Shown: one piece after another, positions 1 through 28,996 of the stretch
How positions within the stretch are numbered: position 1 is the stretch's first letter
Layout of the letters: every line of letters begins with the position of its first letter
Source of the DNA: Pseudogymnoascus verrucosus
Taxonomy: Eukaryota
Assembly (NCBI GenBank): GCA_001662655.1
Contig: KV460230.1
Reading direction: 5' to 3' (one strand)
DNA length: 64,000 nucleotides
Translations under genes and position numbers: made by a program
The notes under the pieces: generated by a model
The model's database searches: none
What the model was told of the DNA's origin: nothing
The model's input: only the letters and a program-made list of their open reading frames with translations

Positions 1-34
1 AGGGCAGATCAATTGATTACTTCTACTATTTGTG

Positions 35-161
35 GTTTACGGTTAGGCCGGGCCAACCGTAAACCGGAAAAATCATGGTTGGACCGGCCAGTTCATGAAC
101 GGGCCGGCCAGTTCATGAACCAGAATAGTTCACGGTTGGGCCGGAACATATATCAACCCTG
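35..161. mobile_element. Terminus of a probable hAT-like DNA transposon with subterminal repeats
   Basis: Ends ...tatcaaccctg (reverse complement begins CAGGGTTGATA, a CAG-start TIR as in hAT elements). Contains GGCCAGTTCATGAAC twice and inverted AACCGT(A/G)AAC motifs. Family assignment is inference. Confidence 0.5.
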
Positions 162-299
162 AATTTGTTCCTATAATTATAAATTCGACTGTGTCCCTCT
201 ATTTATACCTCATCTCCTTCTCAGTTCGGGCAGAGGCGAATCGCCCTGGGAGAGGGAGGATGTGGCATTACCCTACGAGCAAGACGGTCTCCAATAACC

Positions 300-761
300 A
301 CATATAGGCTAGTAAAATCCATGACGCTATGTCACTTACAAGCTTCTTAAACCCCATCGAAGAGAGCGAAGAAGAGGATATAATTACTAATGAGAATACA
401 ATTCTATAGGAGGTAATATAGGAGCATTTGGGCCTACAATCAGCTGGAGCCGAAGCTGACGAAGAAGAAGAAGAATAGAACAGCCATTACTAACGCTACT
501 AGAAGCCCGCTAAGCTCTTTAAGTTCTTATAGAATATATAGAAGGATCAAATACGCTTGGGAAATCATATTCTAGGGCCTTAGAGCGCCTTACTACTGAT
601 ATTGAGGCTCTAGTAATATCATCAAGGCGGCAGAGTACTCTAGATAGTTGGTTTACATAGTCATTCAATTTTATCACGTGTTTCTAGTATACCGATATTT
701 CAATTATAACGATATAAAAGTCTGGTCAAAATTACATCGTTATAACAGGGGTCCGACTGTA
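300..761 (+). mobile_element. RIP-mutated 3' fragment of a pogo/Tigger-like (Tc1-mariner superfamily) transposon with right TIR and TA target site
   Basis: 481-660 translates as QPLLTLLEAR*AL*VLIEYIEGSNTLGKSYSRALERLTTDIEALVISSRRQSTLDSWFT*, with the QxTLDSWF tail typical of pogo transposases. Internal stops are TAA/TAG at likely Gln codons. TIR-like end ...cgttataacaggggtccgactg (to 759) is followed by TA. Confidence 0.75.
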
Positions 762-882
762 AGCGAATGCCAGCCTTGCTCAACGGCAAAAGGCCCCAAC
801 ATCTTTAAATACTTTCTTCCAGTGTCTCATTTTATTCCATCACGTCTACTATTATTGTGTATCTCCGTTTTTTTTTATAAAC

Positions 883-3800
883 ATGGTCGAAGCAGTTGCG
901 CTCGTTGGCCTTACTGGCTCAATCCTCCAATTTGTTGACTTCAGCTCTAAAGTTATTAGACGGCTACGGGATTTCCAGTCTTCGCTCAAAGAAAAACAAA
1001 ATATATTCAGCAACTTACTAGTCATACTACCTTTTATGAGAGACGCACTGGATGGCTTATGTAACCCGGATGTGACAAAATATTTGAGTGAACAAACTGA
1101 GGTTGTTCTTCACATGATCAGAGGATGCGTTGCTCAGGTTGAATTGCTTGAAGGGTTTATGAGGAGAACAATTCCAAAAGAAGATGAGACTTCATTCAAC
1201 TAAAGATGGAAAGCACTCTGTAGCCTTGCTCGCGAAGAGGATGTCAAGCAAGCCGCTAGGCGTCTTCGTCAGTTCTCGAATTTCCTGATCTTGCATCAAT
1301 CTATTCATACTTCGCACCTTAGCACTCAAGTGCTTAGTCGACTTACAGCTCTAGAAGAAATCGCCAAGACGGCAACTGAAACTTTTAATCAGTCGACTGG
1401 GAGCCGAAGAAAAGACGACACAGAATGTGTCTGAAAGCAATAAGGGAGATAGTATCCACTCCCTCATACAGCCTCAGCGACAAGTTAAAAGGCCAACTAC
1501 TTATTCAGATCAATCAGGCACACTATTCTTAAACGACAGATGTGGTTGTTCTTGCCACAAACTGTTGTCAAAGTCTGCCCGTTTCTGGTCTTGGAAACTG
1601 ACCTCACTTGCTAATCTTCTTTCCGCCTGCGACAGGCCATCTTGTGCGAACAAGACTATCCGTACGTCGGTTTACATCAGCCTCTCTCATTTCAACATTC
1701 GTCAAGCCATTCATCTTGGGTTGGGCTTTGCATGGGGCGAGAGTGGATGTTCATTGTCGTTTGTGCTTCGCCCTTCTCGAACTGTCAAATACACATCTCC
1801 CGGATTTGTGCTACTATGGAAATGCGAAACAATGCAACTTCGGTGGCCAGAGGCCCAAACGATGCTAGCAAAGCTCTTCAACGAAAAAGAAGCCTCACCG
1901 GAGGACGTTGACCCATCGGGGAAGACATGGCTAGAGGTAAGTTTACCATATTTGTTTTTAAGTCGAGAGCTAAATTTTAATGTATTTTAGAAGTTATTGC
2001 AATATCCATGGAAGTTCGGCTCTAAAGAAGCACAATTTGGGCTCTTCAAATTGCTGGTGGAGTCTGGCGCAAAGCTGGATACCGATATGTCGTAAGTTTA
2101 GAAGAAATTATGCTGTTTTACACTTCGTTGACTCTTGACATGTAATTTCTAGACTGCTATGTCTCTGTGCTCACTGGATTGGAGAAGCTCCACACTTGAG
2201 TACAGTGGAAGAATTACTAGACCATGGATATGATGTTTCGTTAGTAAACTCTCAGTCGTTATTGAGTTGGCCAGAGCCTTCCAACCCTTGCTGGATAAGT
2301 GAAGAAATGACCCCTGATCCCTTCTTCATTGGACTTATCGGAAAATGTGTGAAAAACGACCCTAGTGAGTATGTCTGCGTCGTCACAAAAACAATTGCTA
2401 ATGAATCTTCTCATGCACAGGTTTCGGCGACACAACCCCTCTCATGGAAGCTGCCTTAATAGGATCTGAACAAGAACTCCGTCAACACTTCTCGAAGTCT
2501 CATGATCTCAAAATAAATTTCTTGGGCCAATCTGTGCTTCACCTTGCCATATTGCGTCCTAAAGTTTTGCGGTGGCCCATCTCGATCTACGAGACTGTAG
2601 ATATGCCAGACAAGAATGGGACGACTCCGTTGATGTATGCAGCCGCATATGACAAAGCCGAATCAGCACTCCTATTGCTAGATCAAGGAGCTGATCCCAG
2701 AGTAACTGATCGGCTTCGGCAACGTAACTTCTTGGATTATGCGCTTACTCGAGACAACTGGAGCTTCATTACCGTAGTAGTTAATCATCTCAAACAACGC
2801 TACGAAGCCCACTCTTATCAAGGTATGCTTAACTACATCATGCAAGCATATGTTTTATCTCGCGAGAATCGGTGGGGGGAGAAGCATTTTCAAGAACTGC
2901 TTTCCATGGGAGCTGATTCCAATATGATATTTTATGACGAAAGCACGCTTCTCCACCAAACACAGGATGTTAATGAAGTAGAAGCGCTTTTCCGAGCTGG
3001 ATTTGTAAGGATTAATCACCAGGACAGGAGTGGCATCACACCGCTTATGAAAGTGGTTAGGTTGAAAAATGCCGCTTTAGTCGAAGCATGTTTAGGCAAG
3101 GGCGCTTCCATTAATGAGAGAGACCACAGGGGATGGACAGCACTACATCATATTGCTCAGGAACTACAAAAGTCAAGGAGCACCTCCTATGACCCCGATT
3201 CTGCGGATTGGTATTTGCTACTACATTCAGAGCTTCTCGATACAGTAAGACTACTTCTTCGACATGGAGCAGACCCTGCAGCAAGAGATCACTGTGTATG
3301 CGCTTGTTCACTCTCAGGATGTACACCTTCGACTGTCCTACTAGGAAAGGGAGATTTTCCATGTCTTTTTCCGAATGGGGATATGTGGTCGTTAGAATGG
3401 CTTCAGATATTATCAGAGCTTGGATCTGAGGATACTGGAGAGCAAAGGATGCTTGATTTGGTTAGAGTTAAGCAGTTCGAGAAGCGTGAATTGACTCATG
3501 TCTGCTGCCAGAGAGGCTTTTATTCGCAACTCGACGAGGACGACTTTCATGAAATTATAGACGAGGAAAACGAGGGCATACAGGAAGTTGACGAAATGAT
3601 GCAATGTTACTTAGAATGCGGTAGAGGCAATGTCCAGGAGAGATGGATTGAGCAGCTTTCATTGATGTCAAACCCGCAAGGAATACATTCACTGGACAGA
3701 GTCGTAGCTAACGGGCAGCGTAAGTTAAGACAGCCTCCTATCAAACCCTATTGGGACTTACATTCTAAGTGAACTAACACTTCATGGTGTATTAAAGGGT

Positions 3801-3997
3801 CTAGCAGTTAAAGATCCTATACGTGTCAATTCGTTCTCTAGATACAATATTAACACTGTCCGAGACAGATTCGAGGAGCACTTTGGCCCTCTATCTTCCT
3901 TTCCGCTACGAGAGCAAATTAATATGAAGGACTATTGCATCTGGCTCGAATACTACTACAACAATCAGGCAAAATTCAGCACATCGTATTCTGTTAA
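883..3997 (+). pseudogene. Ankyrin-repeat protein with SesA/HeLo-like fungal N-terminal domain (NLR-related architecture), disrupted; Starship cargo
   Basis: N-terminus MVEAVALVGLTGSILQFVDFSSKVIRRL. Ankyrin motifs GTTPLMYAA, GITPLMKVV and GWTALHHIA. Introns at about 1937-1990, 2092-2152, 2365-2420 and 3720-3804. In-frame TAA at 1201-1203, after which the frame continues RWKALCSLAREE. Frameshift near 1430. The last exon runs into antisense captain sequence at ~3998. Confidence 0.75.
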
Positions 3998-5974
3998 TCA
4001 TAAAACAGCCTGTCCTTCTTTGCTCTGTAGATCTTTAGTAACTAATAATGCATTTGCGATACGATTGCGTTCCGGCATAAGGTGGCGGATCAAAGGAAAC
4101 TTGCTAGCTGGTTTTGGTAAAGTTTCATCATCCTCTCCTTCTTGTTGCAATTGCCGTTGAGCCTCTTCATCGAAACTACCAGAGAACCACTTCTCTCTAT
4201 GTGACGCGCGAGCTGATTAGAGTAGATTACTTTTTTCAGTGTATAGTTTATGTCGCTCTTTGAACTAGGCTAAGCCTTTGTTAGGATTTAGAGGTATCTT
4301 TGCCGTCGCCTCCTTAATGCGCTTATTTAGCTCTTGAACTTCAGGCTGTTAATGAAACTCATCTTTCTCTTTGCATGTAAGGTCTCTAGGGGCGTTCTAG
4401 TCACGTCGATGACCTACGCTACATAACACCTTAATGTGTTTAGTAGATCTAACTTTGTTAGAGAACAAAGCAAATATATTCTCTTTAACAAGCCCTAACC
4501 TATAGTATTCCTTATATACAGCATCGCTTTTCTAACCTATAACTTGTTTGCGTATCTAAGGATCTTAACACAATTAGAAGATATTAAGTATAATATAGAT
4601 TAAACTCACCTTTAATCTTATTTACAACCCTAGCGCAGATTGCATAGATCTTCACATTGTCCCTATAGCTAGCACGTTTTGTAAGAGAGACGATTTAATC
4701 TTAGAGAGATACGAATGTTAGTGCCCTATTTTCGTGTACGCTATTTGAAGATACCATTCAAAGGACAGGACAGTTAAGGGCTTCGTCTTTCCATTTTAAA
4801 GTCCACGAATCTCTTCCTCTTAGCACGCGAGCCTTCAAAAGCTTTTCTAAAGTCTCAAAGTGTTTAAAAGCATTGTTAGCTATTACTATAGTAAAAAAAG
4901 ACATTACTCTATTATCTTATAGATTGTCTGTTAACTCTATAACGATCTTAAGGCTATGTCTAGTAAGCATTGCCTATAGTGTTCTGCAAAGTTACATACT
5001 TATCATTCTTATCATTACGTTTTCCTTTTAATAATCGCTAAACTACTATAAGCTTAAAAGTAAAACTGCTATTAGCCTCTCGTAACAAGTGAACATAGCA
5101 ATCCTAATTAGTTAGCAAATTATCGCACTTTTTAGACTTAACATACCTTATAAGCAATTACTTCATTTATTCCCCTATAAGAGCTTAACTCTATATAGGC
5201 ACTACCTCTAGCGCTACTATTAGCAAAGAAAAGCAAAGTAAACGATATCTAGAGCCTATAGCGCTTATATAGATAGTTATAATCATTAGAACACTATAGA
5301 TATGTTATTAGCATTATTAGGTCTATGTTAGTAACTAAGTATTTGTTATGTTTCTTTATACTTAGACTAAGGTTGTCTTTTAAAGATCTTTTAATATACT
5401 AGATATATGTTAATTAACATTTAATAAAAGGGGATTATAGATTATATACTAGCTACATTACTAACAATGTCCTTAGTAAGCTTAGATTTTATAGCTTAAG
5501 TATAATAGCTAACATATTAGTACTATATATTAACAATACTATAGACTATTAGAAGTTCCTTAATTTAACTATATTATAATAAAGCATAGTATTTAACAAA
5601 GTCTTTATATAGAGTGCTGTTATGTTATAGTAATGACTCTATCTCTATATCCTTTATAGCTAGAAAACTAATATATCTATTAGTAGCACTATACATAGTG
5701 TTAAGTCTTATGTACTTTTAAAATACCTCTCCTATGTCTATGTGCCTAACTTTAGTAGCGCTAGAGAGATATTTTTGTTCAACTTAACCTATTATATTCT
5801 TTTCCTTAAATGTTTTCTACTTAAAGTAGCCTTATAACTATGCTAGAGCAGCTTATTCTTCTTTAGAGAGAGTTTTTCACCCTATAGTTCTAGGGTCCTT
5901 AAAAGTAAATAAAGAATGTTGTAGATGGTAGAATTCAAAATCTAAACATAGCAGGAGCGTTTCTTTTATACCAT
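3998..5974 (-). pseudogene. DUF3435 tyrosine recombinase (Starship captain), RIP-inactivated and 3'-truncated
   Basis: Manual minus-strand translation gives DUF3435-type blocks: YLYKRYRL*ISFTLLFFANSSARGSAYIELSSYRGINEVIAYK (~5150-5280, catalytic R in S[G]AR); LTKRASYRDNVKIYAICARVVNKIK followed by a gtgag intron (~4610-4690); RKQVIG*KSDAVYKEYY (~4500-4555); GHRRD*NAPRDL (~4380-4420); LIRHLMPERNRIANALLVTKDLQSKEGQAVL (~4000-4095). Very TpA-rich. Candidate ATG at 5974. Confidence 0.85.
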
Positions 5975-5980
5975 TTTTAA

Positions 5981-6036
5981 GCTCACCCTCGCTTACCTTG
6001 CTTACCCTCGCTCACCCTACTCACCTTCGCTCACCT
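5981..6036. repeat. Degenerate ~10-bp tandem repeat (GCTCACCCTC) just upstream of the captain ATG
   Basis: gctcaccctc gcttaccttg cttaccctcg ctcaccctac tcaccttcgc tcacct, about 6 units. Confidence 0.85.
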
Positions 6037-6242
6037 AGGTACCGGATTATCTATAGCCATCTAAAGTCGCAGTGCATCGCGTTCATCGCGTCTCAATACA
6101 TGACCCACTTCGTGCGTGTCGACGTGGCTGCTATTAGGAAGCTAAGGGGGATAACCGGATTATCGTAAGGCATCAAAAACTTAAGGGCGGCGACGCTCAC
6201 CCGCTAGTCCAAATGGCACCGTCCTGAGTATTAATCCACTGA

Positions 6243-6307
6243 AAGCTTGAGATCGGTGGATTAGTAGTTGGGTGGGTGACCACCAGCGAATACCCACTGT
6301 TGTATGT
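6243..6307 (+). pseudogene. 5S rRNA gene, 3' half only (about nt 55-119)
   Basis: Identical to 18757-18821 of the intact 5S gene and followed by a T-run Pol III terminator. The 5' half is absent. Confidence 0.95.
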
Positions 6308-8285
6308 TTTTTTTGCCTCATTTTTTTTTGTTGCTTGTGTGGACTCTACTGTGGATAGTTGTCACGATCGTGGTAATAGGTATATCGCGGAATCGAGGCC
6401 CCTTATGGCATGAAGGGTGAGCAGGGGGTGAGTTGGATGAAAGCGAGGCAGAGGAACATTTTCATATCAACACCGAAGTTTGGCCATCGTAGCATACATA
6501 CCATAAGGATGAGAGCTTCATCCAACTCATGCGGCCCTGAGGGGACATCTCCTCAAATCTCTCATCTCGATGTAATGTTTCCACGCAATAGAATCAATGA
6601 ATTCCCGCACATCTTGTGTAGAGGCATTACTGAATTGTTGATTTTGAGGTCCGCCTGATTCATGCGTTTGGCGTCCGCAATCATCACACTCCTTCAGTCC
6701 AGATTTCCAGCCACAGCACCCGCTCCGGTGTTACTTCCCGACATGTTTGCGTTATTCACTGAGATCTGGCTAACTTCCTCAAGACTGTCACTTCTCACAC
6801 TGGACTCTTCCGAAGGACTTCGGTCTCGGTATGTTGTGAACGCTCCTCTTTCTCGGCTTCTTTCCCACTCAGGTTCCCGAGCGCCTTCACCTTCCATACA
6901 AGTCGATCCACCTCACAGCTCTAAATCGCCGTTCACTGACTGTAGGGTTTTTATGTGGTTACTGCTCACGAGCCTCTTATAACAAAAGGCCACCGTCCCT
7001 CAAGAGGAATCGTTAACCAAAAGTCGGCTAGACAAAACGTTTGACGTGTTGTACCGCAGTCGTAATGAGGTCGCGGGCGATTTTCAAAAACACAGTCATT
7101 CGCAAAGAAACTGATCGACGCCGTAAGTGGTGGCTTCTCTATGCGGTAGGTACGGTGGTTCTTGCTGTCGCTATGGTGTTCTCACCCCCGCTCTTCTCGT
7201 GATACGCCTTCTTGCCACCATCACCTGCCCACAATTCAAATTCTCGTCACCGCCACCCTCCCTATCGACACATTCATATCCCTACCCCTTCCCATCTCGG
7301 CGCCTGCCTGACCCCCGTTCCCGCGTGTTGGGCAGACTTGTCATGCTGCCGGAGGATATTCATCATGACTCTCTCTTGGTAATTCTTTGTGGGATTGAAG
7401 GATGTTTGAGGAGGAGCAGCGGGGTTTTATATTTCGAGACGGTCAGTGAGAGGGGTGAGCAGGAGCAGGAATTTAGACGGACTACTCTTTTATCCCGTGT
7501 CGAGGAGAAATCGGGAACAGGGGGGGGGGCTATATGATGGACTCTAGAATCTGGGAATACAGCTTGTTTCATTCACCGGCTACCGAAAAACCTTTTTTTG
7601 ACGTTGTGATTGTGGCCGAGAATATACCTTTTTATGTGTTGAGTGGTTTACTCAACCTCTTCGGCTTCTCGATATGGTAGACACGGTGGTTCTTGTTGTC
7701 GCGATGGTGCTGTCACCTTCCCTTCTTCTTCTCGTGACACGGGTTCTTGTTGTCGTGATGACCTTCTCACCTCTCCTTTCTCACCAGATAGATTCTCAAC
7801 CAGTAACCCCATAACCACCACACTTCCCACACCCACCGTTCACGAGTTTCGATTGTCAACATGTTACGCGCATTGGTTCCAGCAGCTTGTTTGTCCTAGA
7901 GAATTTTGTTTCATGCTGGATAGGCAATAGGAACGGCCGGAGCGAACACTAAATACCTAGAGCTGTTCTCGGCTTTGGCTTACTGCTGCTGGAATGAAAT
8001 GGCGATTTTCACTCTGAGGAAGGCGTTTTATACTTATTCCCTGTCCGCAGTGAAGAGCTCAGCTCAGCTGGTGAGCTTGGGGTCCGGGTTTTACTTTTTT
8101 TGTTCTTGGGGAAAGTGGGAAGAGCGAAGAGGGGAGAAGGGGGGATAAGGGGGGATAAGATGGGTGAAGGGGGGATAAGGGGGGATAAGATGGGTGATAG
8201 AGGATATATATATATATTTTTCATTCACTGCTCACCTTGGATATTTTGCTTCATTGACTAGTTCTATTGGCAGAAAATGCCTCTC

Positions 8286-8333
8286 GCGCATGCAAAGCGC
8301 ATGCAAAGCGCATGCAAAGCGCATGCAAAGCGC
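8286..8333. repeat. 11-bp tandem repeat (GCGCATGCAAA)x4
   Basis: Four perfect copies plus GCGC. Confidence 0.95.
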
Positions 8334-8779
8334 CGTATCCGCATAGCTAAAGCCGTAATACAGTGCATCTAAAACCGTCGAACGTAGATAAACAAACTGA
8401 TTGCGAAGACTGTCATATAGAGGCATATCAGTTCGTCGACCTTCGTTGGCTTCTTAGAAGCTTAACTTACTAACCTTAAACATGTTGAGTTATTTCATCA
8501 GATCTTTGAATAATGGTACAGGTAGTAGGGAAGCATAATTGTCGTATTCAAAGGATGAGGAGACATATCTGCATACCTCGCGATACGTATTCTTAGGAGC
8601 TTGCGTGTCACTAGGTCATTGGGTGAGAGTGTAGAGTTGTAGTTACACGGCATTGCTGTCACGCTGAGGTCCAATTACTGGAAAACCAGACACGAAATAA
8701 CTAGAGCTTCGACTCAATGATCCCCATCATCCTTTCTCCTGAACAACTGAATTAATACGGACCTGAGAACTTTGACACT

Positions 8780-9843
8780 ATGAGCTTCTGTTGTATTCTT
8801 TGTGATCGGTCCTTCAATATCAAAAACGCGCTACAACAGCACCTGCGGGATTCGCCAGCGCATGCCCTGTCCTTTAACTGCGATGACTGCGATCGATCTT
8901 TCAGTAGCGAGGAGGCACTGCAGCAGCACCTGCGGGATTCACCAGCGCATGCCCCGTCCTTCAACTGCGATGACTGCGATCGATCTTTCAGTAGCGAGGA
9001 GGCACTGCAGCAGCACCTACGGGATTCACCAGCGCATGCCCCGTCCTTCGATTGCGATGACTGCGATCGATCTTTTAATAGCGAAGAGGCGCTGCAACAA
9101 CACCTGCAAGATTCGCCAGCGCATGCTCCGTCCTTTGACTGCAATGACTGCGATCGATCTTTTAATAGCGAAGAGGCGCTGCAACAACACCTGCGGGATT
9201 CGCCAGCGCATGCCCCGTCCTTCGACTGTGAAACCTGCGATCGTCACTACGGCAGTGAGGAAGCTCTACAGCAGCATCTGCGGGACTCTCACGTTAACCA
9301 ACAGGATACGGAGACTCCTTTAGATGCCTTTTTCCGCTCTTTCCCAATGTTTGATTATGACCCTTCTCTCTCCCCCGCTACTTCTTATGCCAAGTTGCAG
9401 AGACACGAAGGATGGCACCGCGGGAATGCCGCGTCGGAAGATGCGTGGGACAGATACCAAGGTGCGCTGCAGAACGAACTACACATGTGGTATGGTGCAG
9501 AGAGCGATTTGACTGCGTGGCATGCGCTTTGTCGCGCGATCGGTGTCAAGCCGCTTCCAAAAACGAGCGAGCAATGCGAGCAGGTACGTACCGCATAACG
9601 AAAGTTGGTGGATTTATGATGACACGAATAAAGGCTGTGCGAAAGACACAGGTCAACATCGTTGATTTGATCGAATGGGGACGAAGTGGTAGTAAGGGAA
9701 GAGTTCGGACCTTTCGTGATGTAGAAGAGCTGCGAGCCTACACTAAGGAGACAGGCAAGATATTTCACAATATGTTCGCCAAAGAAAGCAGCAATGTTGT
9801 CTTGAGACACCTGCTTCGACATATCTTTCGAGTGAGCTTGTGA
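8780..9843 (+). CDS. C2H2 zinc-finger tandem-repeat protein with conserved fungal C-terminal domain; join(8780..9583,9634..9843)
   Basis: Six CxxC...HxxxxxxH fingers in 29-aa (87-bp) repeats, SFNCDDCDRSFSSEEALQQHLRDSPAHAP. GT-AG intron 9584-9633 joins CEQ to AVRKTQVNIVDLIEW. Confidence 0.85.
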
Positions 9844-10124
9844 AACAGAAACAAGGTCATCATAAGGTCGGACAGTAGAGTTACATCTGTAAATGCTGTT
9901 ATCTGATCCAGATCTACGTGATACAGCAACGGAGATTCTTGCTAATCTAGATCAATTGGAGCTTCAAGTTAACTCTCCTGATATCCGTTTAAGTCCGTGG
10001 AGAGTATAGGGTTATTTTAGTTGATCTTATTGGAAACTTTCCAGAGTATGTGGTCTATCCTATGTGAAGGGTTAGGAGGGGTGAAGATTTGCTGCCCGTA
10101 AAAATAATATATAATAAATTTGCC

Positions 10125-11332
10125 TTACGGGCCATTTTCAAGCTCATACGTGTTGGATGGATACAGTGTGCCCTTCTTGAGAATAACAAGCGGATGGTGA
10201 TAAAGTCCCGATTGAGTTGGAACACTCCAAGCCTGAACCGGTTGTTTCTGCGCTAGTTCCCAAAAAAGGTCCATGCTGTAAAGCTCCTCAGATCGCACAG
10301 CATAGAACCAGGTCAATAACGTATACAAACTGACCTTTAATCGGCCTTCATAATGCTCCGCCCCAGCTGCTGAATCTGCTGATGGAGGTGGAGGAGGAGG
10401 TGTGGTTGAAGGGACGAACTTCGCGTCATACGCCCATATCCACGGTGTACGAGTGTTAATGCACGCATTCACAACCTCGGGAGTGACGAGTAGGAAAGTA
10501 TTAGTCAGAATACGTGGATTTGGGTCAACCTCTCCTGCCACTCGGTCTTGGAAAATGCTAGAATATTGTCAGTCAAGGAAATTTGAGGAAAGAGTAGGAA
10601 ATAGGCAGACCTGCGTAAAATTTCAGGGCTACTCTCAGACACAAGCCCGTCTGAGAAAGTAAACTCTTTCGTTGGGATGATGGCTGTGCCGCCCTTCAAC
10701 AGCCTGAGGCCCTCATCCACGCGACTGTCCATAACCGTAAGAAACCTTTCCCAAGAGTCATTGTTGCTGTCACCAATTGTTGCACTATCCCTGAAGACAA
10801 CAAACCCCCAGCGTCTAGTCTGATTGCTCCATGACACGGATGGGTCGATAAGTTTCCGTACCCATTTGCAAGGCTGCTTCATGTCCTCAGCGTAACTCTC
10901 CAATCTCGCCTTGGTTTCTTTTGCTCTGGCAGCTGAAAAGTCGTTTGCCCGACATCTAACAGCTAACGATACAGCGTCATCCCGAGGAGTTACAAGTGCA
11001 CGACGAGCTTTCAAGTGAGCCGTCCGATCCTCGTGACACCAGTGAATTTTGCTGTTTGCTGTCGACTCCCATGGATCCCAAATGTGGTACCCATTTCTCA
11101 TTAAACGGCATTCTTCAGATGTCATCGACTCGGGACTTGTGAGGGCTTTGTTCTCCAATTCTTCCGGTGTTAATCCACTGACTTCGAGGGCGTGGGCAAT
11201 TTGTGTAGTGAGGTCCGCTTGTCGAAGTACAATGAGTCTTTCGGCGTCTGTCACCTCACCTGGAGTTTGTACAGCCTTGGCCCATAACTCCCTCTCTAGA
11301 GGAGTAGGATAAACGTCCTTCGGGAGGTCCAT
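10125..11332 (-). CDS. Hypothetical fungal protein; complement(join(10125..10557,10611..11332))
   Basis: Two ORFs join in frame across intron 10558-10610 (GT...CTGAC...TAG). Contains a WGFVVFR motif seen in fungal hypothetical proteins. Confidence 0.75.
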
Positions 11333-11384
11333 GCTTGATGTTTTCCAAGAGTGGTGATTTGGATGCGATTTACAGTCGATGTGA

Positions 11385-11481
11385 CCTCACCCCGCGGCTA
11401 ACCCTCGCTTCACCCCTAAGGCGGCAAGGGGCTCACCGGCTAGGCCGGGATGTCACCAACCGAAGTAAAAAGCAAGTGGTT
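11385..11481 (-). mobile_element. Second Starship-like terminus (element B), homologous to the 6182-6242 terminus
   Basis: Aligns with the element A end at the same distance from the 5S junction (taaggcggc...gctcaccggctaggcc...atgtcacc..cc..agta). Includes GCTAACCCTC/CTCACCCC-type subterminal motifs. Confidence 0.65.
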
Positions 11482-11544
11482 GCTTGAGATCGGTGGATTA
11501 GTAGTTGGGTGGGTGACCACCAGCGAATACCCACTGTTGTATGT
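11482..11544 (+). pseudogene. 5S rRNA gene, 3' half only (about nt 57-119)
   Basis: Identical to 18759-18821, with a T-run terminator. The 5' half is absent. Confidence 0.95.
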
Positions 11545-14500
11545 TTTTGTTTTGTTATTTTTTGTGGTTGCCTTTTTTTGCACCAGGCTTGAAAGCGGTA
11601 AGGAGACCCTGGGGGGGGGGAAGGAGCTCAGAAGACACATCATCCGTGTGAACCACTTGATTTTCTGAGTCCTTGAATTCCTTTTAAGGCAGGTGTATGG
11701 CTGATGTATTGACCATACCGGGTTTCTAGAGAGGAGAACTGATATATTGTTCTTAGGCTGTCTTCTTTTGCTCCATGATTAAAGCAGTTTCCCCCAGCAT
11801 AGCCTTATTTATATTTATGCTCATCAGTGAGGAGCTACTTTGGCGGCGCATGTGCTGGATGTCACTATAACAGCGAGACAAAACGGTGTACGTTTTGGAA
11901 ACTAATCGACTTGACCGGTGACTCTGACGTGGTCGTGTACGTGATAGATGTGAATAGAGGGTTCTGTCGTGGTGGTGTTCTCACCTACCATTCTTCTCGT
12001 GATACGGGTTCTACTTCTCACCACATACCTTCTCACCACCACCCCCCTCCTGTCACCTCCAATACACCATCCCCAGAAGCATTCAAGAGTCGCTAGGGGG
12101 AAGTTCGAAAGACACCTCTTGTGTGCGTGTGGCCCGTTTTACGTCAGTTCCATAAAAAAAAACCTTTCAGCTCCATATATCGCCGTTGGTTTGACGAAAC
12201 TTTCCTCTCAGGAGCTCTTTTTATACTTCGCCACTGCAGGAAGGAGTTCATCTCAGATTAGCTGGTGAGCCTGGGATCCCGAGTTTTGCTTCCTTTATCT
12301 TGTGTCTTGGGGAAATGGGAAAGAGGAAGGGGATATATGATATACGATAGACGTGCTATATATAGTCTAGTTAAGCCATTCCCAACCTATCCGCCTTGAA
12401 ACTCGTTTATGACAGTGTTCAGCCGTTATAAAGCAATCCCAATTCCGACTGTACAATGTCTTGTGGGTTCTTACTGTTGCGATGGTGCACTCAGCTCCCC
12501 TTCTTCTCAGGATACGGGTTCTTCCTGTTGCGCACTATTCTCACCTCTACTTCTCACCACAAACCTTCTCACCACCGCCACGCCCCCGTCACCTCCAACC
12601 CCCCACCCTCAAAGAACCCAGGAGCCGCCGCTCGAGACCAGCTTAGCATGCACCTCGTGTATGTGTCACCTATCAACCATTTTCCGTCATTTGACCACTT
12701 GAAAGTGCAGCTCATCCAATTTTTGGATATCAGCACCACCAGCGTCTTCAAACCCGAATAAAACCCCACGAGGGGCCCTATATTATCCCAGCCCCAGGGG
12801 AGACCTGTCGAAATGTTTATACTTCTTTATTTTGTCCTGCAACCGAGGATGTTTTCGTTCCAGAAGCTCGTTTTATACCCCGTCCTCGTCCCTGGAAGAG
12901 GGAGCTTATCTCAGCTCAGCTCAGTTTAGATGGTGAGTCTGGAATCCTGTTTTACTGTACGGCGATGGTGTTGTTGTTGTTGTTGTTGTCTCACTTCAAA
13001 TAGGGATGGGATGGATGGGGGAGACACGGGTCACGGTGGTGGTTTGGGGTGAGACACATAGGTTGGACGCGTATATACTGCATGCCAGATAGGGGGGTAT
13101 ATACCGTACATATCGTATTAGATGTCAAAAGGGGGATTGATTGCTTTTTGATCCGCCTCCTGTCGCGAGTGACACCATACCATACCCCTACCATACACCC
13201 TTTCACGTGACCACCACCGTTGACTGGTTCGGGTGATCGACATGTCCTGGTTCGCGCCGCTGTGACTGACTGGTTGACATGTTTGATAGTTCGGATGGCG
13301 ATATATTGTGGTTCTTTTGAAGAAATATTTTCTTCCTGCATGGTTGGGTGGATTAGGGAGGCAAGGACTGACTGGTTCTGACATGCGTAGGGGGGGAACT
13401 TGGCAGGTTGTGGTGTGTGTGTACGCAGTGAACTGTGGTTCGTGTGAGGCGAATATTGGTATAAGGTGGAACAGTCTTGGTGTAGGGCTGACTGGGTATA
13501 GGATGGATGACTGGTTGAAGGCTGACTGGTTGGGTAGTGTGTATGGTATTGTGCTGTGGTTATTGGGTAGAAAATTTGAAGAAGTTGATGTAAAATTCTT
13601 CTTCGTGGCGGCGTGGCGGCTTGGTATGTGCTGTTCGCCTCCTGTGCGGTGAGTTGTCGCGTCGTCGCTGCCAGCTATGCTGCCAACTCTGCTGTCAACT
13701 CTGCTGTCAACTCTGATTCATCCCTAATATCCCATCCCATCCCTCATCTCCACTACCAGACATACTCACCACCATCCAAAAACCACATGTCATAAAAAAC
13801 AACACCACCTCCTGAGCTTCAGACACACACACATCCCTCAGACACCCAATTGTCCAGACCACCAGATCGTCCCGATCGGCTGCCGAGCAACAAACACCTT
13901 CACCTTCACCAGTAGTGCATTTCCCAAAGCGTGCGCTCCTGTGCACCTCTGCTCTCTCCTCAGCACATCTCCGATTAAGTTTGTGTGCAGCGCGGCAGAT
14001 GAGAACTGTATCTGGACAAAGGGAGTGGAACCGTGAAAATGACGCGAAAGCTTGGTTGGTGCTGATCCCAATCACCACCATTTAAGAGGCGAGAGTAGAC
14101 AACAAAGCGCATGCAAACTATCCCGTAGTGTCACCAGAGTAAAGTGCTCAAAGTGCGCAAAGTGCGCATATACCAAGACTAACCAAGGCTAACCCAAGGC
14201 TAACCCAAGCCTATAAACCACTTCTGTAAAGGTCACTTATGCCAAACTGGCGTATTACCTCACATGGGACTCACCTCACATCCCGTACCGCCTGCTCATT
14301 TCCATCAATGCAACCCTCCCATCAGCCAATCAGCGCGTCGCAGGACCTGAAATACGCCCTGATGGCTGCTGTGTTCCTGCCTGTGGGTTCGCCTCAAATC
14401 TCGCTAACGCGTAGTAACTCCCTTATTCGGGTCTAGCTTCCCGTTCGCTTGCTTTCCCCCTTCGCACCTTTAGCATCTTTAGCACGCGCTCACTACAGAT

Positions 14501-15328
14501 GTGGACAGCACGGGGTACGGGGAGCGTTAGCGCCACCCCCCCTGATGGTAACTGTTTGGCCAGACCCCGTGTCTTGTGCGTTGATCGCACGCCCGGCACG
14601 CGTTTACTGGTAATTAACACCAATTTACACCAATTTACTCCGGCTTTTTCTCATTTTACGATCCACACCCCCCTCCCCCCCCAAACAACTCTACCTCTCA
14701 CTACCTCTCCCATAAACACCAGTCCATTCCATAGTAAACAAGTAATCTCTTACTCCGTACACCCCCCTTTCCTCTTCCCTCCCTCAACCAGACACACGTT
14801 CCTTTTCTGTTCCCCCCCCTGGTTTCCTCAATCTGCGGTCCCCACTCTTCTTCCTAACCGGTCACTTTACGGTCACTTTACACACTACTACTCTACTTGC
14901 CGCCCTCATTTCGTTCTTGTCCTCTCCACACCTTCTACCAACTTCCTCACTTCACCGTTCTATTTCCACCCAACTGAGAGTCAAGACTCTCAATCACACT
15001 CCTTTGGAAGGTCGCTGTCGGTGAATACACTCTTTGATCAGGAAATTCACTTTACCTTCAACCTTTCGTCGTCGTCAACTTCACCTTTGAAACCCGGGAT
15101 CAACAACAGCACACAGCTGTCTGTTATCAATCCGATCAACCCAATGTGAGTAGACCCTCTCCCCTCTCCTTCAACAGATTGAATATGATTCAATTCCACG
15201 CATCAATCGCGCTGGATTGTTTTCCAACGCGCAAACATTCTCAATTGCGAACAAAGCGCCTCCATACAACTAGAAACTGACAACTCCTCCTTCGCGTCCA
15301 GACCAAAGAACTACACGAACCCTTCACA

Positions 15329-16663
15329 ATGAAGCTCATCACCATCGCCCTCGTCGGCGCCTCTGCCGTGGCCGCGGCTTCCCACCGCCACGTGCATCGC
15401 CATGCTCCCCACGTCCGCGGCTCCGCAGTCGCCAAGCGCGCCGACGCAACCGTCGTTGAGGACGCCGTCGTGACCAAGTACGAGATGAACGGCAAGGAGC
15501 TCAACGCCGCCAAGGTCGAGCAGGGTGTCAAGGACGGAATCTACATCCTCCTCGACGACACCACCTCTGCTGCCCCTGTTCCCACCAAGGCTGCCGTCGC
15601 CGCCGGTGAGTTCTTGGAGCAGAAGAAGCCCACCACCCCAGCGGCTCCATCGACCACCAGCGTTGCGCCACCACCTCCGCCACCAACCACGAGCGCCGCC
15701 CCCGTCGTGCCGACCCCGGCTCCTTCTTCGGGAGGTGGTTCCGGTGCCACCGGCCTTGACGCCGACTTCCCCAGCGGAACCATCGACTGCGACCAGTTCC
15801 CCTCCGCCTACGGCCCCGTCGCTGCCGAGTGGCTCAACCTCGGCGGCTGGACCGGTCTCCAGATGACCCCCAGCTTCAGCCCTGGTGATGCCGCGATCCA
15901 CCTGATCAACACCGGTATCGGTGGCGACAACTGCATCAAGAACTCCTTCTGCTCGTACGCCTGCCCACCCGGATACCAGAAGTCCCAGTGGCCCTCTTCC
16001 CAGGGCGCAACCGGCCAGTCCATCGGCGGTCTCTACTGTAACGCCCAGGGCAAGCTCGAGCTCACCAACCCCACTCTGTCCAAGACTCTCTGCATCAAGG
16101 GAACTGGCGAGGTTAAGGTTAAGAACACCATCGGCCGCAACGTCCCCATCTGCCGTACCGACTACCCCGGTACCGAGTCTGAGACCGTCGCTCTCGACAC
16201 CCAGCCCGGCCAGGAGTACGAGCTCACCTGCCCCGACGCCAACAAGTACTACAGATGGGGCAACGCCGCCACCTCGGCCCAGTACTACATCAACCCCGCT
16301 GGATCCCCTCTCAAGGATGCGTGCCGCTGGAACGAGGCCGGCTCGAACATGGGTAACTGGGCTCCCGTTAACTTGGGTGTCGGAAAGGGACCTACTGGCG
16401 AGACGTACATCTCGATCTTCCAGAACAAGCCTACCAACCCTGATGGAAAGCTCAACTTCAACTTGGAGATTGTGGGTGATGTTAGCGGAAAGTGCGCGTA
16501 CATTGATGGCCAGTTCTATAACAATGGTGTTGCTGACCCAAGTGGTTGCACTGTAAGTCTTGATTCCCCCCCTCACCATCTTCATATCACTCCAAGAAAA
16601 CCGGTTTTCTAACACAACCACCAGGTTCTCGTCACCGGCACCGCCACCTACAAGATCTACTAG
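15329..16663 (+). CDS. SUN1: Secreted SUN-family (GH132) beta-1,3-glucanase, Sun4/Uth1/Sim1-like; join(15329..16552,16625..16663)
   Basis: Signal peptide, His-rich HRHVHRH, Pro/Thr linker and the SUN motif CSYACPPGYQKSQWPSSQGATGQSIGGLYC. Intron 16553-16624, and a probable 5' UTR intron at ~15145-15302. Confidence 0.93.
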
Positions 16664-17289
16664 ATTTACTCTCTCTAGTTTCTTGTACCAATAATTCCAC
16701 CATTCGCGCTACCAGTTCGATTTTCCAATAACAGCCCAGCCCCAGCCCAAGTCTTCTTATTTGTTGAGACAATTGCTGAACACAAACACGTACATAATAA
16801 GATGTCCCTGCACACAAACAACACAAACTAGTTCATAGCAGTTACATGAAATGATGATTCTTTCTAAAACACTACTACACAATTCGATTCTAATTTAATG
16901 CTTTCTTCGTTTTTGTTTTTTGCTTATTTGCTGTTTACTCTCTTTGCGTGTTTTTGCAGTGTTTTTCTTGCTTGGACTGGTGATGGTGTGATGTAGATCG
17001 TCAACCTGATACTGTTTGAAGCTTGAAAAACGAGTGATGTTCGGTGGTGTGGTGAGGGTGAGTGAGGGGTGGGATGGCTGTGGTGAGCAAGGTGATTGTA
17101 TGTGTATGCAAACGTGCTACTGAAATGTGATGGAGTTATATGGTTACTGTGACCGACTGATCCTACAATCCTGCCCTCCCCTCCCCTCTCATTTCCACCC
17201 CTCTTTCCCCCACCATAACCGCCCCAACAGCCATCCCTAAGTGTGCACCACATACACATCTTTCGAACCAGACGCTATTCCGACTCGAG

Positions 17290-17486
17290 AAAGAAGGAAG
17301 GAGCAACCAGAACCACATTAACTAGGAAAGGGAAGGAACGACCCCCTCAACTGAGGAAAGAACGAGGGGCTTTCAGAGGGAAGGAACGACCTTGTAAAAA
17401 AAAGGGGGGGGGAGGAAGGAACGACGTATTAACTGACTGAGGAAGGAACGAACGACCTGAGTAAAAAAGGAAGGAAGGAACGACCC
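17290..17486. repeat. Cluster of about 6 dispersed GGAAGGAACGAC motifs
   Basis: Copies near 17330, 17354, 17378, 17413, 17440 and 17473. Confidence 0.75.
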
Positions 17487-18671
17487 GATTATAGAATAGA
17501 CGGAAAGGTCGAGAGCTGTGGTACGTATACCGTTAACTACTAATGTAACTTCGACTATTCTACTGACTGCCTATAGGTATAGCCTCCGGAGAAGGAACAT
17601 ATACACTGCTTCGCGCGGCGTCTTCTCGGGAGTATGTAGTGTGGAGATTGGATTGCTACTCGTCGAGGTTGTTGTCTGGCGGTTGGATGCGGTTAGGGGT
17701 GTATATATAGTTAGAGAAGACGGGGGAGGCGGTGGTGTGGAAAGTACGATGGCTGGTGCCGATCCATGCCACCTCGCTGGTTAGTAAAGGAGGTTATTGA
17801 GTCCTCTGGTAACACCCCTGCAGATGTGCCAGCAATGGCCATTTACTCTGCCTGGATCAAAGATGCCCTTGAGTCTGGAGAGATCATCGTTAGAGCCCAC
17901 TCGACACATACTGTGCTGGAAAAGGAGGTGGGAGCGGCAAGTCGGTCAACCCAAAACAGATCAGCATTTCAGGGGGGGGTTACGATTTGGGTTTGGAGGG
18001 TGGTTGGGGGGGGAGGGGGGAGGGGGGATTGTCGAGGGTGGTGCTGTTGATGTCGTTGCTCCTGTTGCTGTTGCTCATTCCTGATGCCGTCGTTCGTCCT
18101 GCTGCTGTCACTACTACCCCCATCTCTCGAATTTCCATCGCTCCCATTCCTATCTCTGCTGCGCTATCACCCCTTCCACTACCAACCCCCATGTCAAAAG
18201 TGGGCGCCTAGTAGATCAAATATCGGATGAGTAGTCCAATCCGATACGCGTCCAAGTCTGTCTTTTTATAGCCCCTGCACAGGTTTTTTTTACCATCCAG
18301 CGGATCGATTCTGTGTGAATGAGAAGTTTATCTCGCGCTGAGTCGAATAAGAACCCCTCCCCCCGGTCATTCATGTTCCTTCCTCGGCCCTCTCGCCTTT
18401 TTTCCATATCTCAGAGACGGTGCTATACCGGCGAGCTCATTCTCCTATTAGCTTTACTAGCCGCACAGATCATAGGTGGAGACTACATAACGCGGGAACC
18501 ATTATAACGGCACACAGTTCAAGAGCGACCAACAGGAGATTACTCTCAAGTCGAAGATCGCAGAACTAGAGAGATCTAGGTGACTCAACTTGTAGCCGTG
18601 ATGCCACAACCTCGAGACACAAAATCCTAGACGGCCGCCGGTTTAGCCAACCTATTGTATGCAGTATGGGG

Positions 18672-18680
18672 TTATATATA
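18672..18680 (+). promoter_or_regulatory. TATA-like element about 25-30 bp upstream of the 5S gene
   Basis: TTATATATA upstream of the 5S start, as is known for dispersed 5S genes of Neurospora. Confidence 0.6.
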
Positions 18681-18702
18681 CTCTACGTTGCGAACAACTG
18701 TC

Positions 18703-18821
18703 ACATACGACCATAGACTCAAGAGAATTGGGCATCCCGTCCGCTCTGCCATACACAAGCTTGAGATCGGTGGATTAGTAGTTGGGTGGGTGACCACCAG
18801 CGAATACCCACTGTTGTATGT
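18703..18821 (+). rRNA. 5S ribosomal RNA gene (intact, dispersed copy)
   Basis: 119 nt, ACATACGACCATAG...CTGTTGTATGT, with complementary ends, the conserved GATTAGTAGTTGGGTGGGTGACCACCAGCGAATACCC and a T-run terminator. Confidence 0.97.
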
Positions 18822-20809
18822 TTTTGCCTTTTTTTTTTGCCATTTTTAGCTATGGAATTACGAGGGCGTAGTTTGTTTGGGTTGAGAGGGAGGTTGATAT
18901 AAAAACGTATACTGTCCTGTCCGATCCCACTTCGCGTGGGGGGGCTACGATTCATGTTTGGACGGCGGGTGGTGGTGGCGCGGGATTGTTGATATTGGTG
19001 CTGTTGCTGCCGTTGCTCCTGCTGCTGTCGTCACCCCTGTTGCTGTCGCCCACCCTTGTTGCCGTCACCCCCTATTGCTGTCACCCCTTTCACCCATGCC
19101 CGCCCTCCCCATATCACCACCATCCTAGCGCAATCACAACCTACCTATCAACACACCCCCCCCAGCCGCAACTCACACACGCCATAAGAGAGGCATTGAT
19201 CTCCTTTGATGCATGGTCAAGAAGCAATATCTCTGGCAGCAGCAGGCCAACTATATATGTGTATCTCGACTACGGATTTCTGACCCAGTGGTGGTGCAGA
19301 CGTGCTTTAACACCAAGACGACACCGCGGTGACTGGTGTCTGCACAGCGACTTCGAGACGAGATACGGGTATGTTGGCATGCTGGTAGAATAGTTTTTGC
19401 GGGGACTTGTCGTCTTTTACTTCCTGGAGGGGGGGGGGAGGGGGAGGGAGGGGGACTTCATTATAAACCCACGATACTTCCTGTTTTCTGGTGTCTACCG
19501 TATCACGTCCTGTCCTCAAAATGTATTTGCGTGGAGAAACTTCGCCGCCTAGTCGGTATATGGATGACATGTATACACCGTAAAGAGCCTCAGAAAGTCC
19601 TAGCTTGCTGGACAAAGACAACTAAAGAATGATTTCGCTCAAGAGTACACCCATCTCTGAATATCAACCTGTCTTAAAAGCACGATTCGAGAGTGAGGAA
19701 AAACTCGCCTGCCTCTTCTCCAACGAGCTATAGCTACACGAGAGACTTGCTACAACCACACACCAGATCCTCAAACTGCACACGACAAGATCACGGTTGT
19801 GGCAAAGCGAGTCTCGGATGAGTTCAAGCTTGCTACCAAGAAGGAGAGGGAGCGCATTCGCAGAAAGCGGGTTGCCGAAGACGAATGGATGGTTATGATC
19901 TTGTTGCTATTGCTCCTGTTGCTGTCGCTCCTGTTCTTGTCACCCCTTTTCTTGTGACCCCTTTTCCTGTCACCCCTTTTCTGTCACCCCTTTTCTTGTC
20001 ACCCCTTTTCCTATCACCCCCTGTTCCTATCAAGCCTTTTCCTAGTACCCCCCGAGATAGTCTCGCTGCATAATAGAGTACATATCGGACGTGTAACCAA
20101 TCCGATAATTTGTTGTTGAGCTGCGGAAGTTCGCATCCTGGTGTCTTTCGCAGTATGATGACTCGTATAATACACCTGGATGCACAAGAAAGAAGCTTAT
20201 CTAGTGCTGAGTTGAATACGAAACCCCCCCCCCCCCTTCCCCCAACTCTGCCACCATCTTATTCCATGCATCCCACAAGCAGAAACGCATGTGGGGAGAT
20301 AATGGAGAAGTATGTATTCTGCCCCGGTCTTGCCCACACTGCTCACATAGAGGATTAGATATACCAGGAGGCCATATTTTGTGAATCTGTAATGTGTGAC
20401 TGGAATATCACCGGTAATAGCATATGTATGCCTTGCTCCCTCTCATATTGTCTGAATATCTATCGCGAGATCCCACATACCCACTTTTACGATATATGGA
20501 ACAAACTGTCTGCAATGTTGCCCTGGAAGGAGAGACAAGAGTGTGACGAGGGTATGAATAAATGTTTCTTCGGCCATGATACCGAAAGAGCACAAACAAT
20601 ATGCAGCGCCCAAACAGCATCGTGAACCAATATGCACTATGGGCAAAAGAGAGGATGAAGCTAATGAAGATAAATATGATACCGAGGCAGTTACAGATCT
20701 GGAATTAATAAACAAAATATTCGAGCGACAAATGAAGAACCTGTGTGGCGAACATAAAGCACTTTAAAATTACTATGCTACCATGTCCATTGCGGGTATG
20801 TCTGCGATA

Positions 20810-27187: not shown

Positions 27188-28996
27188 TCATCTCGGTTGG
27201 TTGGCTCCAGCTTGCCACTGCTGCATCAACGCCATCGCCTGCTCAACAGGGTATCCGATGAACACAGGGCCCGTGAACAGCATCTGCGGTCCACCATTAT
27301 TCCCCGTCGTCGTGGCAGCCTCGGGCTTTGCTATGAATGCTGGCTGCGATGCAGGTTCCGGCTGCGGCTGGCTCTCGTATGTTGCGCCGAAGCCAGAGTC
27401 TTGCGGTGTTACAGTGGGGTGGTCTTTGGGAAGCGGTGCGTTCGGGTCCATGTTCTGGCTGAATGGGCATTGTCCCGCTGGCCTGGCCTGAGGGATATCC
27501 TCTCGGTCAGAGGATGGAGGTTCTTCTGTTACTTCTTCCGCTTTTGCGCCGTGGCCGAATGGGCAGCGGCTCACGGGCGGCTGGCCTTCGAAGTCACGGG
27601 TAATGGCGGGGGCGGATGGGGAGGCTTGTAAATCGTTCTCGGTGTAGTGAGGAGCAGGCGGGAAGTCGTATGGTACTGAAATACCCCATGGACGGCTCGG
27701 CGACTCGCCAACCCTGACCTCATTCATTTGCCTGTCATACCGCCCTTCGCGCTCTTCTTCGGGCTCGGTAGGGACGTCTGTTGTTGCTTCGGCAGGATCG
27801 ACGCCTTCTTCACTAACAGCCTTCGCCCAGCTCTCGACTCGTCCGTTGGATCTCTTATCCACTTCGTATTCCTCAATTTCGTCTTGCACAGGTAACATCG
27901 GCTGGTGCTTCTGGCCCAGTTGCTGCAGCATGCTCACCATGCTACCATATTTCGCATCCAACTTCCTAGCTCCTTCCTCATTCCTCGTATACCGCTTCAC
28001 GCATACTTCATGGCTTCGTGGGATTTCATGCTTGTGGGTCTCAAAATATCTTGCGACCTCTTCGGGAGAATGCTGGTCTAGGAAACGTATGGGGCATTTG
28101 TTGGAGCCGGCGGCCGATGGAGGCGCGGAGACATGTGTTTCGGCATATAGTGCTGCGCATATGGGATCTGCTGAGTGATGGGGGGTGTTGTCTTCCGTAT
28201 CGGGGACGGCAGTGGTTTCCTCAGCGGTCTCCATCGCTGATACTTGGCTCGATGAGTCTTGGTTCGGAGCGGGCTTATTGGATTTTTGAGAGAATGGGCA
28301 CATCAGTTGGCTTTTTTTGCCCGGTACTGTGAAGTCTTGTTCATGGAATGTTGTAAAGGAGGTTCCCCCGCGGGAGTTCCTATTGTTACTGCTCGTAGCT
28401 ATTGAGGCACTGCGATTACTAACGGCAGATCTATTCCAGCCCTTAAGGGAAGCTATGAGCTGTGACGCCTTTCGCCCATCTCTTATAGCCTCAGCCGTCT
28501 GCTGCTTGGAGTTTCCGGACCTCCGGGGAGGTAGCGGCACCTGTGACGTCCGGTCCTCTACATTCACTCGGATGTCCGCGGGAAGCTGCAGCTTAGCTAG
28601 AGTGCTCGAGATATCTGGATCATCAGACGGCGCGTACTTGAGTGCTAACACTTGATACTATAAAGACGATTGTCAGCGGGCTGTCTTTGCAAATGTATAA
28701 ACGTATTCATAGTGATGAAGGAACGGTATTCAGGAAACATGATTGGTTTTTGTCGGTCGTTGTCACCAGAAGCGACTCCAGATCTAGAGCTAAAGTGTCT
28801 CATCACATAGTGTGGTTGGGGGGGAAAGAACAAAGAAATGATGGATTGTGCATACCTGTTCGTGGGCAAAACGTAGCTTGTGTTCGAGAACAGTCTTCCT
28901 ATCGCTCAACAGTTGAACTTCGTCAGCCAGAACATTGAAGTTCTCTGTCAGTGTTTTCATGAGCTGATCAAAATCAGTGTCTCTCATGTGGCTCAT
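27188..28996 (-). CDS. Conserved hypothetical fungal protein; complement(join(27188..28657,28856..28996))
   Basis: N-terminal coiled coil, then CPIRFLDQHSPEEVARYFETHKHEIPRSHEVCVKRY, repeated CPF motifs and C-terminal FTGPVFIGYPVEQA. The intron keeps the frame. Confidence 0.85.

Follow-up and report, generated by a model that had tools for sequence, protein, structure and literature searches.

A candidate captainless unit with ends of a 5S-specific Starship family beside a degraded Starship in Pseudogymnoascus verrucosus

Several families of Starships target 5S rDNA, and the available parts of three sources describe 5S hotspots that hold multiple insertions along with degraded copies (PMC9156397, PMC11162782, 10.1101/2024.06.28.601215). 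As far as these portions cover them, the 5S-targeting elements (Voyager in Macrophomina; Osiris in Aspergillus fumigatus; and the Enterprise-, Arwing-, and Voyager-family elements of the starfish catalogue) insert site-specifically and split the 5S coding region, carry a DUF3435 captain that lies a few hundred base pairs inside one end and reads inward, and are flanked by short direct repeats derived from the 5S sequence. The family presented here likewise splits the 5S gene, in a way that implies a short 5S-derived repeat, and one of its members, element A, has a captain in the same position. Insertion sites differ, in that Voyager cuts 20 bp from the 5' start of the 5S gene according to the available part of PMC9156397, whereas the family at this locus uses nucleotides (nt) 57 to 61. 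Also, the Starships described in the accessible portions of these sources are tens to hundreds of kilobases long and were found by way of their captains, whereas the candidate unit considered here, B, is 5.1 kb long and without a captain. The supplement of PMC11162782 lists "tyr" captains in Pseudogymnoascus genomes; the supplement rows listed include neither entries for individual elements nor a table of 5S targets, and none of them has a repeat string that matches.

The window, by which we mean the whole stretch of 64,000 nt of P. verrucosus DNA that was analyzed (contig KV460230.1 of assembly GCA_001662655.1), contains one intact 5S rRNA gene and two isolated 5S 3' halves (Table 1). An earlier note, made from the sequence alone, had recognized element A upstream of one of these halves and proposed that a second, captainless terminus of the same kind abuts the other. 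In what follows, R denotes the captain-side end of the family, which adjoins the 3' part of a 5S gene, and L denotes the end on the 5S 5' side.

Table 1. Features of the window that bear on element A and candidate unit B
Feature	Positions	Strand	Remarks
Captain pseudogene of element A, DUF3435 tyrosine recombinase	4001-5885	-	RIP-degraded, many in-frame stops
Captain-side (R) end of element A	5950-6244	+	Subterminal CTCACC repeats and terminal block
5S 3' half no. 1 (nt 57-120)	6245-6308	+	Identical to intact gene; cmscan 24.1 bits for 6209-6308
T-rich run behind 5S half no. 1	6309-6337	+	Ends in GCTTG (6333-6337), candidate left direct repeat of B
5S-5'-side (L) family end, candidate left end of unit B	6338-6505	+	Contig joints in relatives; GGTGAG
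C2H2 zinc-finger gene, six fingers	8780-9843	+	Pfam zf-C2H2; 87-bp tandem repeats (family D1), then intron and second exon
First gene inside B end, intact hypothetical protein of ~384 aa	10125-11332	-	ATG at 11332, 149 nt inside end
R-end module of unit B	about 11392-11481	+	CTCACC twice, TAAGGCGGC, GCTCACC.GCTAG.CC, terminal 32 nt
5S 3' half no. 2 (nt 57-120)	11482-11545	+	64/64 identical; first 5 nt are GCTTG
Intact 5S rRNA gene	18703-18822	+	Rfam 74.2 bits; unoccupied target with same sequence

The second 5S 3' half, which the earlier note had located and traced to nt 57, is exact at every one of its positions. When the intact gene was used as the query in blastn-short, the first half was recovered as a match of nt 55 to 120 at 6243-6308 (66 of 66 identical), and no 5S 5' half of at least 9 nt was found elsewhere in the window, including the interval between the two 3' halves. 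At a relaxed threshold, Rfam returns two partial 5S matches, at 6209-6308 and 11455-11545. Two serial 3' halves without a 5' half may have arisen through serial insertion beside a resident element, through capture of the flanking 5S half by element A, or through repair copying. Among other features of the window, the regions downstream of both halves contain a tandem duplication (7132-7798 and 11964-12611) with a period of ~510 to 536 bp, made of related CTCACC-rich units (families D6, D11, D12, and D13), and the minus strand holds a C/D-box snoRNA candidate matching Afu_199 (28727-28807), with a score of 35.6 bits that is below the gathering score of 45 (E = 0.012).

Element A is what is left of a genuine Starship. 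Its DUF3435 captain was inactivated by RIP and has the orientation that the earlier note had given it. A stop-free fragment on the minus strand (4761-4916) matches the Pfam model of DUF3435 (E = 1.3e-6; 28 bits, cutoff of 25.8). In a tblastn search, P0019, a 535-amino-acid DUF3435 protein from another Pseudogymnoascus, aligns over amino acids 1 to 500 in five pieces that run from 5885 to 4001 on the minus strand, with 55 to 82% identity and with in-frame stops, such that the captain begins 360 nt inside the 5S-touching end of A and reads inward. The interval 4001-6000 is AT-rich (28 to 38% GC) and has RIP-type dinucleotide indices. A 2,716-bp contig from a related genome (X3; see below) matches the captain stretch at 4001-5876 with ~90% identity, and A>G and T>C changes are overrepresented in it, as expected if the copy in the window was mutated by RIP. 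At the end of the element, CTCACC occurs 5 times within 5980-6244, compared to 0.21 times expected (P = 2.7e-6). The cargo of A (1335-4002) has a depth of 0 in three of the four related genomes (X3, X5, and X6) and is absent from them, indicating that element A is polymorphic. An ankyrin-repeat open reading frame (ORF) occupies 2444-3772 within this cargo.

The terminus of B resembles that of A in exact register with the 5S breakpoint. The 32 nt preceding GCTTGAGA are identical between the two ends at 19 positions without a gap; when 200,000 pairs of 32-mers were drawn at random from the window, at least 19/32 identical positions were seen in a fraction of 7e-05. This alignment had been reported in the earlier note together with the blocks TAAGG(G)CGGC and GCTCACC.GCTAG.CC, which are indeed present at both ends. 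Over the 60 nt before the junction, the global alignment of A and B has a z score of 3.9, and its score is reached by 5 of 3,000 random pairs; over 100 nt, 11 of 3,000 random pairs reach the observed score. CTCACC occurs twice at the captain-side end of B, compared to 0.08 times expected. The inner limit of the B module is indicated by three marks: a contig from X5 diverges after 11391; paralogues of the B end leave the window sequence just before 11397, where they pass into more CTCACC repeats; and a joint in relatives falls at 11401. Separately, an inverted match to the B-end tip (13 of 14 nt) occurs at 11651-11664, 105 nt past the second 5S half and with GCTTG at 11587; taken alone, it is not significant (E of ~3).

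When the 64-kb window is searched without anchoring to the 5S junction, the likeness of the two ends is weak (33/48, E = 0.36) and is equalled by chance matches, so the weight of the comparison falls on the related genomes and on the fact that both ends are in exact register at the 5S breakpoint. The E value of 0.36 is what coincidental similarity in the DNA preceding a 5S pseudogene might give, but the in-register probability of ~7e-5, the identical 5S breakpoints, and the collinear hybrids in three other genomes described below render coincidence extremely improbable.

Related genomes were represented by Logan contigs of four public runs (X2, X3, X5, and X6), which were found by a search with 6001-16000 and mapped to positions 1-20000 of the window at 85% likeness. 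Other copies of the B terminus, on which the earlier note had made its reading depend, are present in these genomes: depths at position 11416 are 805, 107, 353, and 456 in the four relatives, compared to ~52, 19, 32, and 31 to 51 for neighboring single-copy contigs, which suggests ~5 to 15 copies of the B end per genome. The subterminal region of A (5962-6055) is covered by 3 to 9 contigs per related genome. In X3, X5, and X6, single contigs track A as far as 6207, where GCTAG ends, continue with 3 other letters, and then follow B from 11448, exactly collinear with the A/B alignment, indicating that hybrid family members, part A-like and part B-like, exist.

At the opposite side of the target, contigs leaving the 5S gene after nt 61 (position 18763) number 12 in X2, 15 in X3, 8 in X5, and 16 in X6, and they enter a shared L-tip consensus, of which ~14 of the first 18 nt agree, by eye, with the reverse complement of the B tip. 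The presence of 5S nt 1 to 61 at L ends and of nt 57 to 120 at R ends indicates that the family normally splits the 5S gene and implies that the 5 bp common to both parts, GCTTG, would form its repeat. Depth at the 5S 3' end suggests ~40 to 60 copies of the 5S gene in total, and loose contig ends suggest 8 to 16 copies per genome interrupted after nt 61; a sizeable share of the 5S genes of these relatives may be split by this Starship family. A metagenome scan for the junction pattern from both ends produced 0 matches.

The A and B ends are siblings that have diverged within one family, and they occupy the same 5S position, as the earlier note had held: both breakpoints are at nt 57, and hybrids of the two occur in relatives. 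With high probability, the captain-side end at 11392-11481 is authentic and belongs to a multicopy Starship-type family. It might instead have originated by an old segmental duplication of the A junction (the end plus the 5S half), after which gene conversion from other 5S genes preserved the identity of the 5S sequence. The T-runs behind both 5S halves, which align at ~25 of 36 positions, and the patchy repeats of 75 to 82% identity downstream of both halves are in line with such an event; however, the flanks show no homology past the T-run, and the many independent copies in relatives, including A/B hybrids, identify the A and B ends as family members and not as a local duplicate. A duplication is accordingly very improbable.

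The interior of B contains no captain, as the earlier note had noticed. Within 6300-11500, none of the 88 stop-to-stop ORFs of at least 35 amino acids matches the Pfam model of DUF3435, and a tblastn search of the window with a family captain found nothing outside element A (next-best E value, 2.4). The first gene inside the end, which had been described as an intact hypothetical protein with its ATG ~150 bp in, begins where predicted and consists of exon 1 (11332-10613), one intron, and an exon 2 that extends to 10128; it aligns to a 382-amino-acid homologue at 92% and 83%. Its best protein matches in Pseudogymnoascus range from 92% (sp. 05NY08) down to 52%, and a match in Scytalidium is at 35%. 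No Pfam family was found for this gene, and in the Atlas it matches only Ascomycota clusters that are unnamed or "hypothetical" (at 0.93). The AlphaFold model has a mean pLDDT of 59 and is confident only for approximately residues 10 to 140, predicted to form a helical N-terminal domain; Foldseek returned no match of the model in PDB at an E value of ≤0.001 (best, 0.25). The possibility that the gene is a hidden recombinase is thus unsupported by Pfam, by the Atlas clusters, and by the AlphaFold and Foldseek predictions, an exclusion that is not strong. A metagenome scan for relatives of the gene yielded 16 pattern matches, none of them confirmed.

The gene that follows is the C2H2 gene named in the earlier note, and both genes of unit B are intact and not RIP-mutated. 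Nearly identical C2H2 fingers are encoded by five 87-bp tandem repeats (8714-9288; 81 to 88% identity), and in X5 the zinc-finger region is represented by 3 contigs at ~3 times the single-copy depth, indicating that it is multicopy in that genome. Two simple repeats occur to the left of the gene, a G-rich 10-nt microsatellite (8109-8194) and four copies of the 11-nt repeat GCGCATGCAAA (8286-8330).

The body of B is present in all four relatives, with differences among the genomes on the right. X2, which is ~99% identical to the window, has everything, including a contig (10420-11491) that reaches into the 5S half. In all four genomes, contigs extend from 6455, 6562, or 6664 to 8149 and from 8231 to 10876; an X6 contig (record 24) spans both sides of the microsatellite at 8.15 to 8.23 kb; breaks in contigs from relatives fall between 8149 and 8231. 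The matches of contigs from X3 and X6 end at 10876, inside the first gene, and are followed in both genomes by exactly 11,810 nt unlike the window, and an X5 contig matches up to 11391 and then has 428 unlike nucleotides. The right flank (from 11509, 11523, or 11525 to 17972) was found in X2, X3, and X6. Neither an empty 5S site nor a second full copy of unit B was seen in the contigs of the four relatives.

These contigs alter the extent of the unit. The earlier note had set its left limit at 8.3 kb, for which there is no support: 6562/6664-10876 is a single conserved block in relatives, and the X6 contig crosses 8149-8231. The note had also taken presence or absence of 8.3 to 11.5 kb as a touchstone, and here the outcome is divided: 8231-10876 is shared by all four relatives, as syntenic core sequence would be, but 10877-11391 is found in two of the four and the exact junction (11392-11491) in one of the four (X2). 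A left end near 8.0 to 8.3 kb was considered and rejected, since relatives run straight across 8.0 to 8.9 kb. Within this region, 8020-8135 shares homology with 12205-12332 (78% over 82 nt, E = 2e-9), and both segments hold the GCTCACC.GCTAG block in inverted orientation; when the end of A was compared with the window in inverted orientation, 12233-12295 scored highest (16.5 against a mean of 8.7, the next best being 14.5). Both segments may be further decayed ends.

A more distant left end, at 6338-6505, is the only one of the family type that has support, and it is suggested by two joints in the relatives. In each of the four genomes, one single-copy contig follows the 5S gene to nt 61 (18763), has 24 other letters, and then continues from 6367 onward, and two of the four (X2 and X3) have a contig of single-copy depth that links 6505 with 11401; both joints have short matched sides of 21 to 38 nt. 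Together, they suggest that a miniature copy consisting of L plus R may exist elsewhere in these genomes. GGTGAG occurs twice within 6338-6505, compared to 0.07 times expected (P = 0.002), and is inverted relative to the CTCACC of R ends. GCTTG is found at both candidate boundaries (6333-6337 and 11482-11486), although as a 5-mer it has 82 copies on the plus strand, and its left copy lies outside a 5S 5' part. Within the window, the inverted similarity of the L-like end to the R ends is weak (E of ~1 or worse), and 6338-6505 is not among the top matches of an objective inverted-match scan.

Because no 5S 5' half lies between the two 3' halves, the left junction of B is non-canonical, with an L-like end placed behind the first 5S half and a 29-nt T-run. 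On the basis of 6367-6505 as the interior of an L end and of GCTTG on both sides, B is read as 6338-11481, a length of 5.1 kb, and not as 8.3 to 11.5 kb. Whether these borders are the matched L and R ends of one captainless unit is, in our judgment, evenly balanced. With 5.1 kb and two genes, this unit lacks the large size and many-gene cargo that are traits of Starships. Alternatively, B could be a large element whose left end lies beyond the window, with A inserted into B's own 5S gene and 6309-11481 forming only its right part. Two 3' halves that share an orientation, without a 5' half in the interval, would fit such nesting, and the available part of PMC9156397 reports nesting of Starships; against it, an L-type end lies directly behind the first 5S half (joint at 6367), and B would still be without a captain at its captain-side end. 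We regard nesting as improbable and, like duplication and chance, as less likely than either of the two readings that follow.

The reading that we prefer, at a probability of about 0.5, is that B represents a non-autonomous, captainless unit of 5.1 kb within a Starship lineage specific for 5S. The family integrates at GCTTG (nt 57 to 61 of the 5S rRNA gene), and under this interpretation the B end would close a unit, 6338-11481, whose opposite extremity is presumably of the type that normally adjoins the 5S 5' part. The terminal modules and the subterminal CTCACC/GGTGAG repeats, which are opposed at the two ends, would be putative binding sites of the captain. Such a unit could not move by itself, and to excise or integrate, whether in the past or in the future, it would have to draw on a captain supplied in trans by an autonomous relative. 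That B ever did move as a captainless unit is doubtful.

The chief competitor holds that 11392-11481 and its 5S half are all that survives of a larger Starship, one that had a captain and lost its interior by deletion or replacement, that the genes are residents or leftover cargo, that 6338-6505 stems from another decayed insertion, and that the locus holds no functional non-autonomous element. Though tentative in itself, this relic reading is nearly as likely as the non-autonomous unit, given the sequence replaced in X3, X6, and X5. The body of B is kept in all four relatives, and it is the junction region that differs (11,810 nt to the right of 10876 in X3 and X6; 428 nt to the right of 11391 in X5), as a relic would predict; the lack of a 5S 5' half in the window and the weak TIR-like similarity point the same way, and degraded Starships at 5S clusters are known in A. 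fumigatus from the accessible portion of 10.1101/2024.06.28.601215. A relic accounts less readily for the joint of L and R pieces (6505 to 11401), which X2 and X3 have at single-copy depth, which carries the 5S 5' part next to L, and which is what matched ends would give, or for two genes that have stayed intact and free of RIP.

A bolder extension of the non-autonomous reading is that the lineage holds natural captainless "mini-Starships," namely, the 5.1-kb two-gene form and a miniature L-plus-R form of ~0.25 kb, that parasitize the captains of autonomous 5S-specific Starships and are piled head to tail. Head-to-tail neighbors would then be separated by 5S 3' halves without 5' halves. We consider this extension unlikely.

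The nearest precedents come from sources of which parts were available. An engineered mini-Hephaestus, miniHphi, was moved by the captain HhpA supplied in trans (PMC10104507, available in part). Like B, miniHphi is small, has Starship ends, lacks a working captain, and depends on an outside captain; it differs in its laboratory origin, its family, and its target site, whereas B is natural and known here from sequence. A "derelict" captain-less region has been described in Pyrenophora, again in a source available in part. In the portions of the literature available, no natural captainless Starship derivative was found described, the only related items being miniHphi, the Pyrenophora region, and unrelated non-autonomous transposons.

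Starships are found and classified by way of the captain gene, such that captainless relatives dependent on others are invisible to current surveys; if mini-Starships are real, annotation pipelines that begin with the captain miss them by design. The existence in nature of a small unit that has the family's ends at its 5S target would demonstrate that Starships, like other DNA transposons, give rise to non-autonomous derivatives. Such a unit would also provide a compact natural substrate for defining the end sequences that a captain needs and would help to explain 5S clusters crowded with split gene copies. Should B be a relic and nothing more, it adds another decayed Starship end to a 5S hotspot, an ordinary finding.

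Cut-and-paste DNA transposons offer a general parallel. Their non-autonomous deletion derivatives, including MITEs, have ends in common with autonomous relatives and are missing the enzyme gene; as with B, there may be longer forms (here, 5.1 kb) and miniature forms (here, L plus R). Unlike the parents of such derivatives, Starships use a tyrosine recombinase and integrate site-specifically. A second parallel is with the tandem integrative islands at bacterial tRNA genes, in which 3' gene fragments in the same orientation separate neighboring elements, an arrangement that the two 5S 3' halves in this window resemble. In contrast to those islands, the family described here normally splits its target gene and does not restore it, with most L ends in relatives adjoining nt 61 of the 5S gene.
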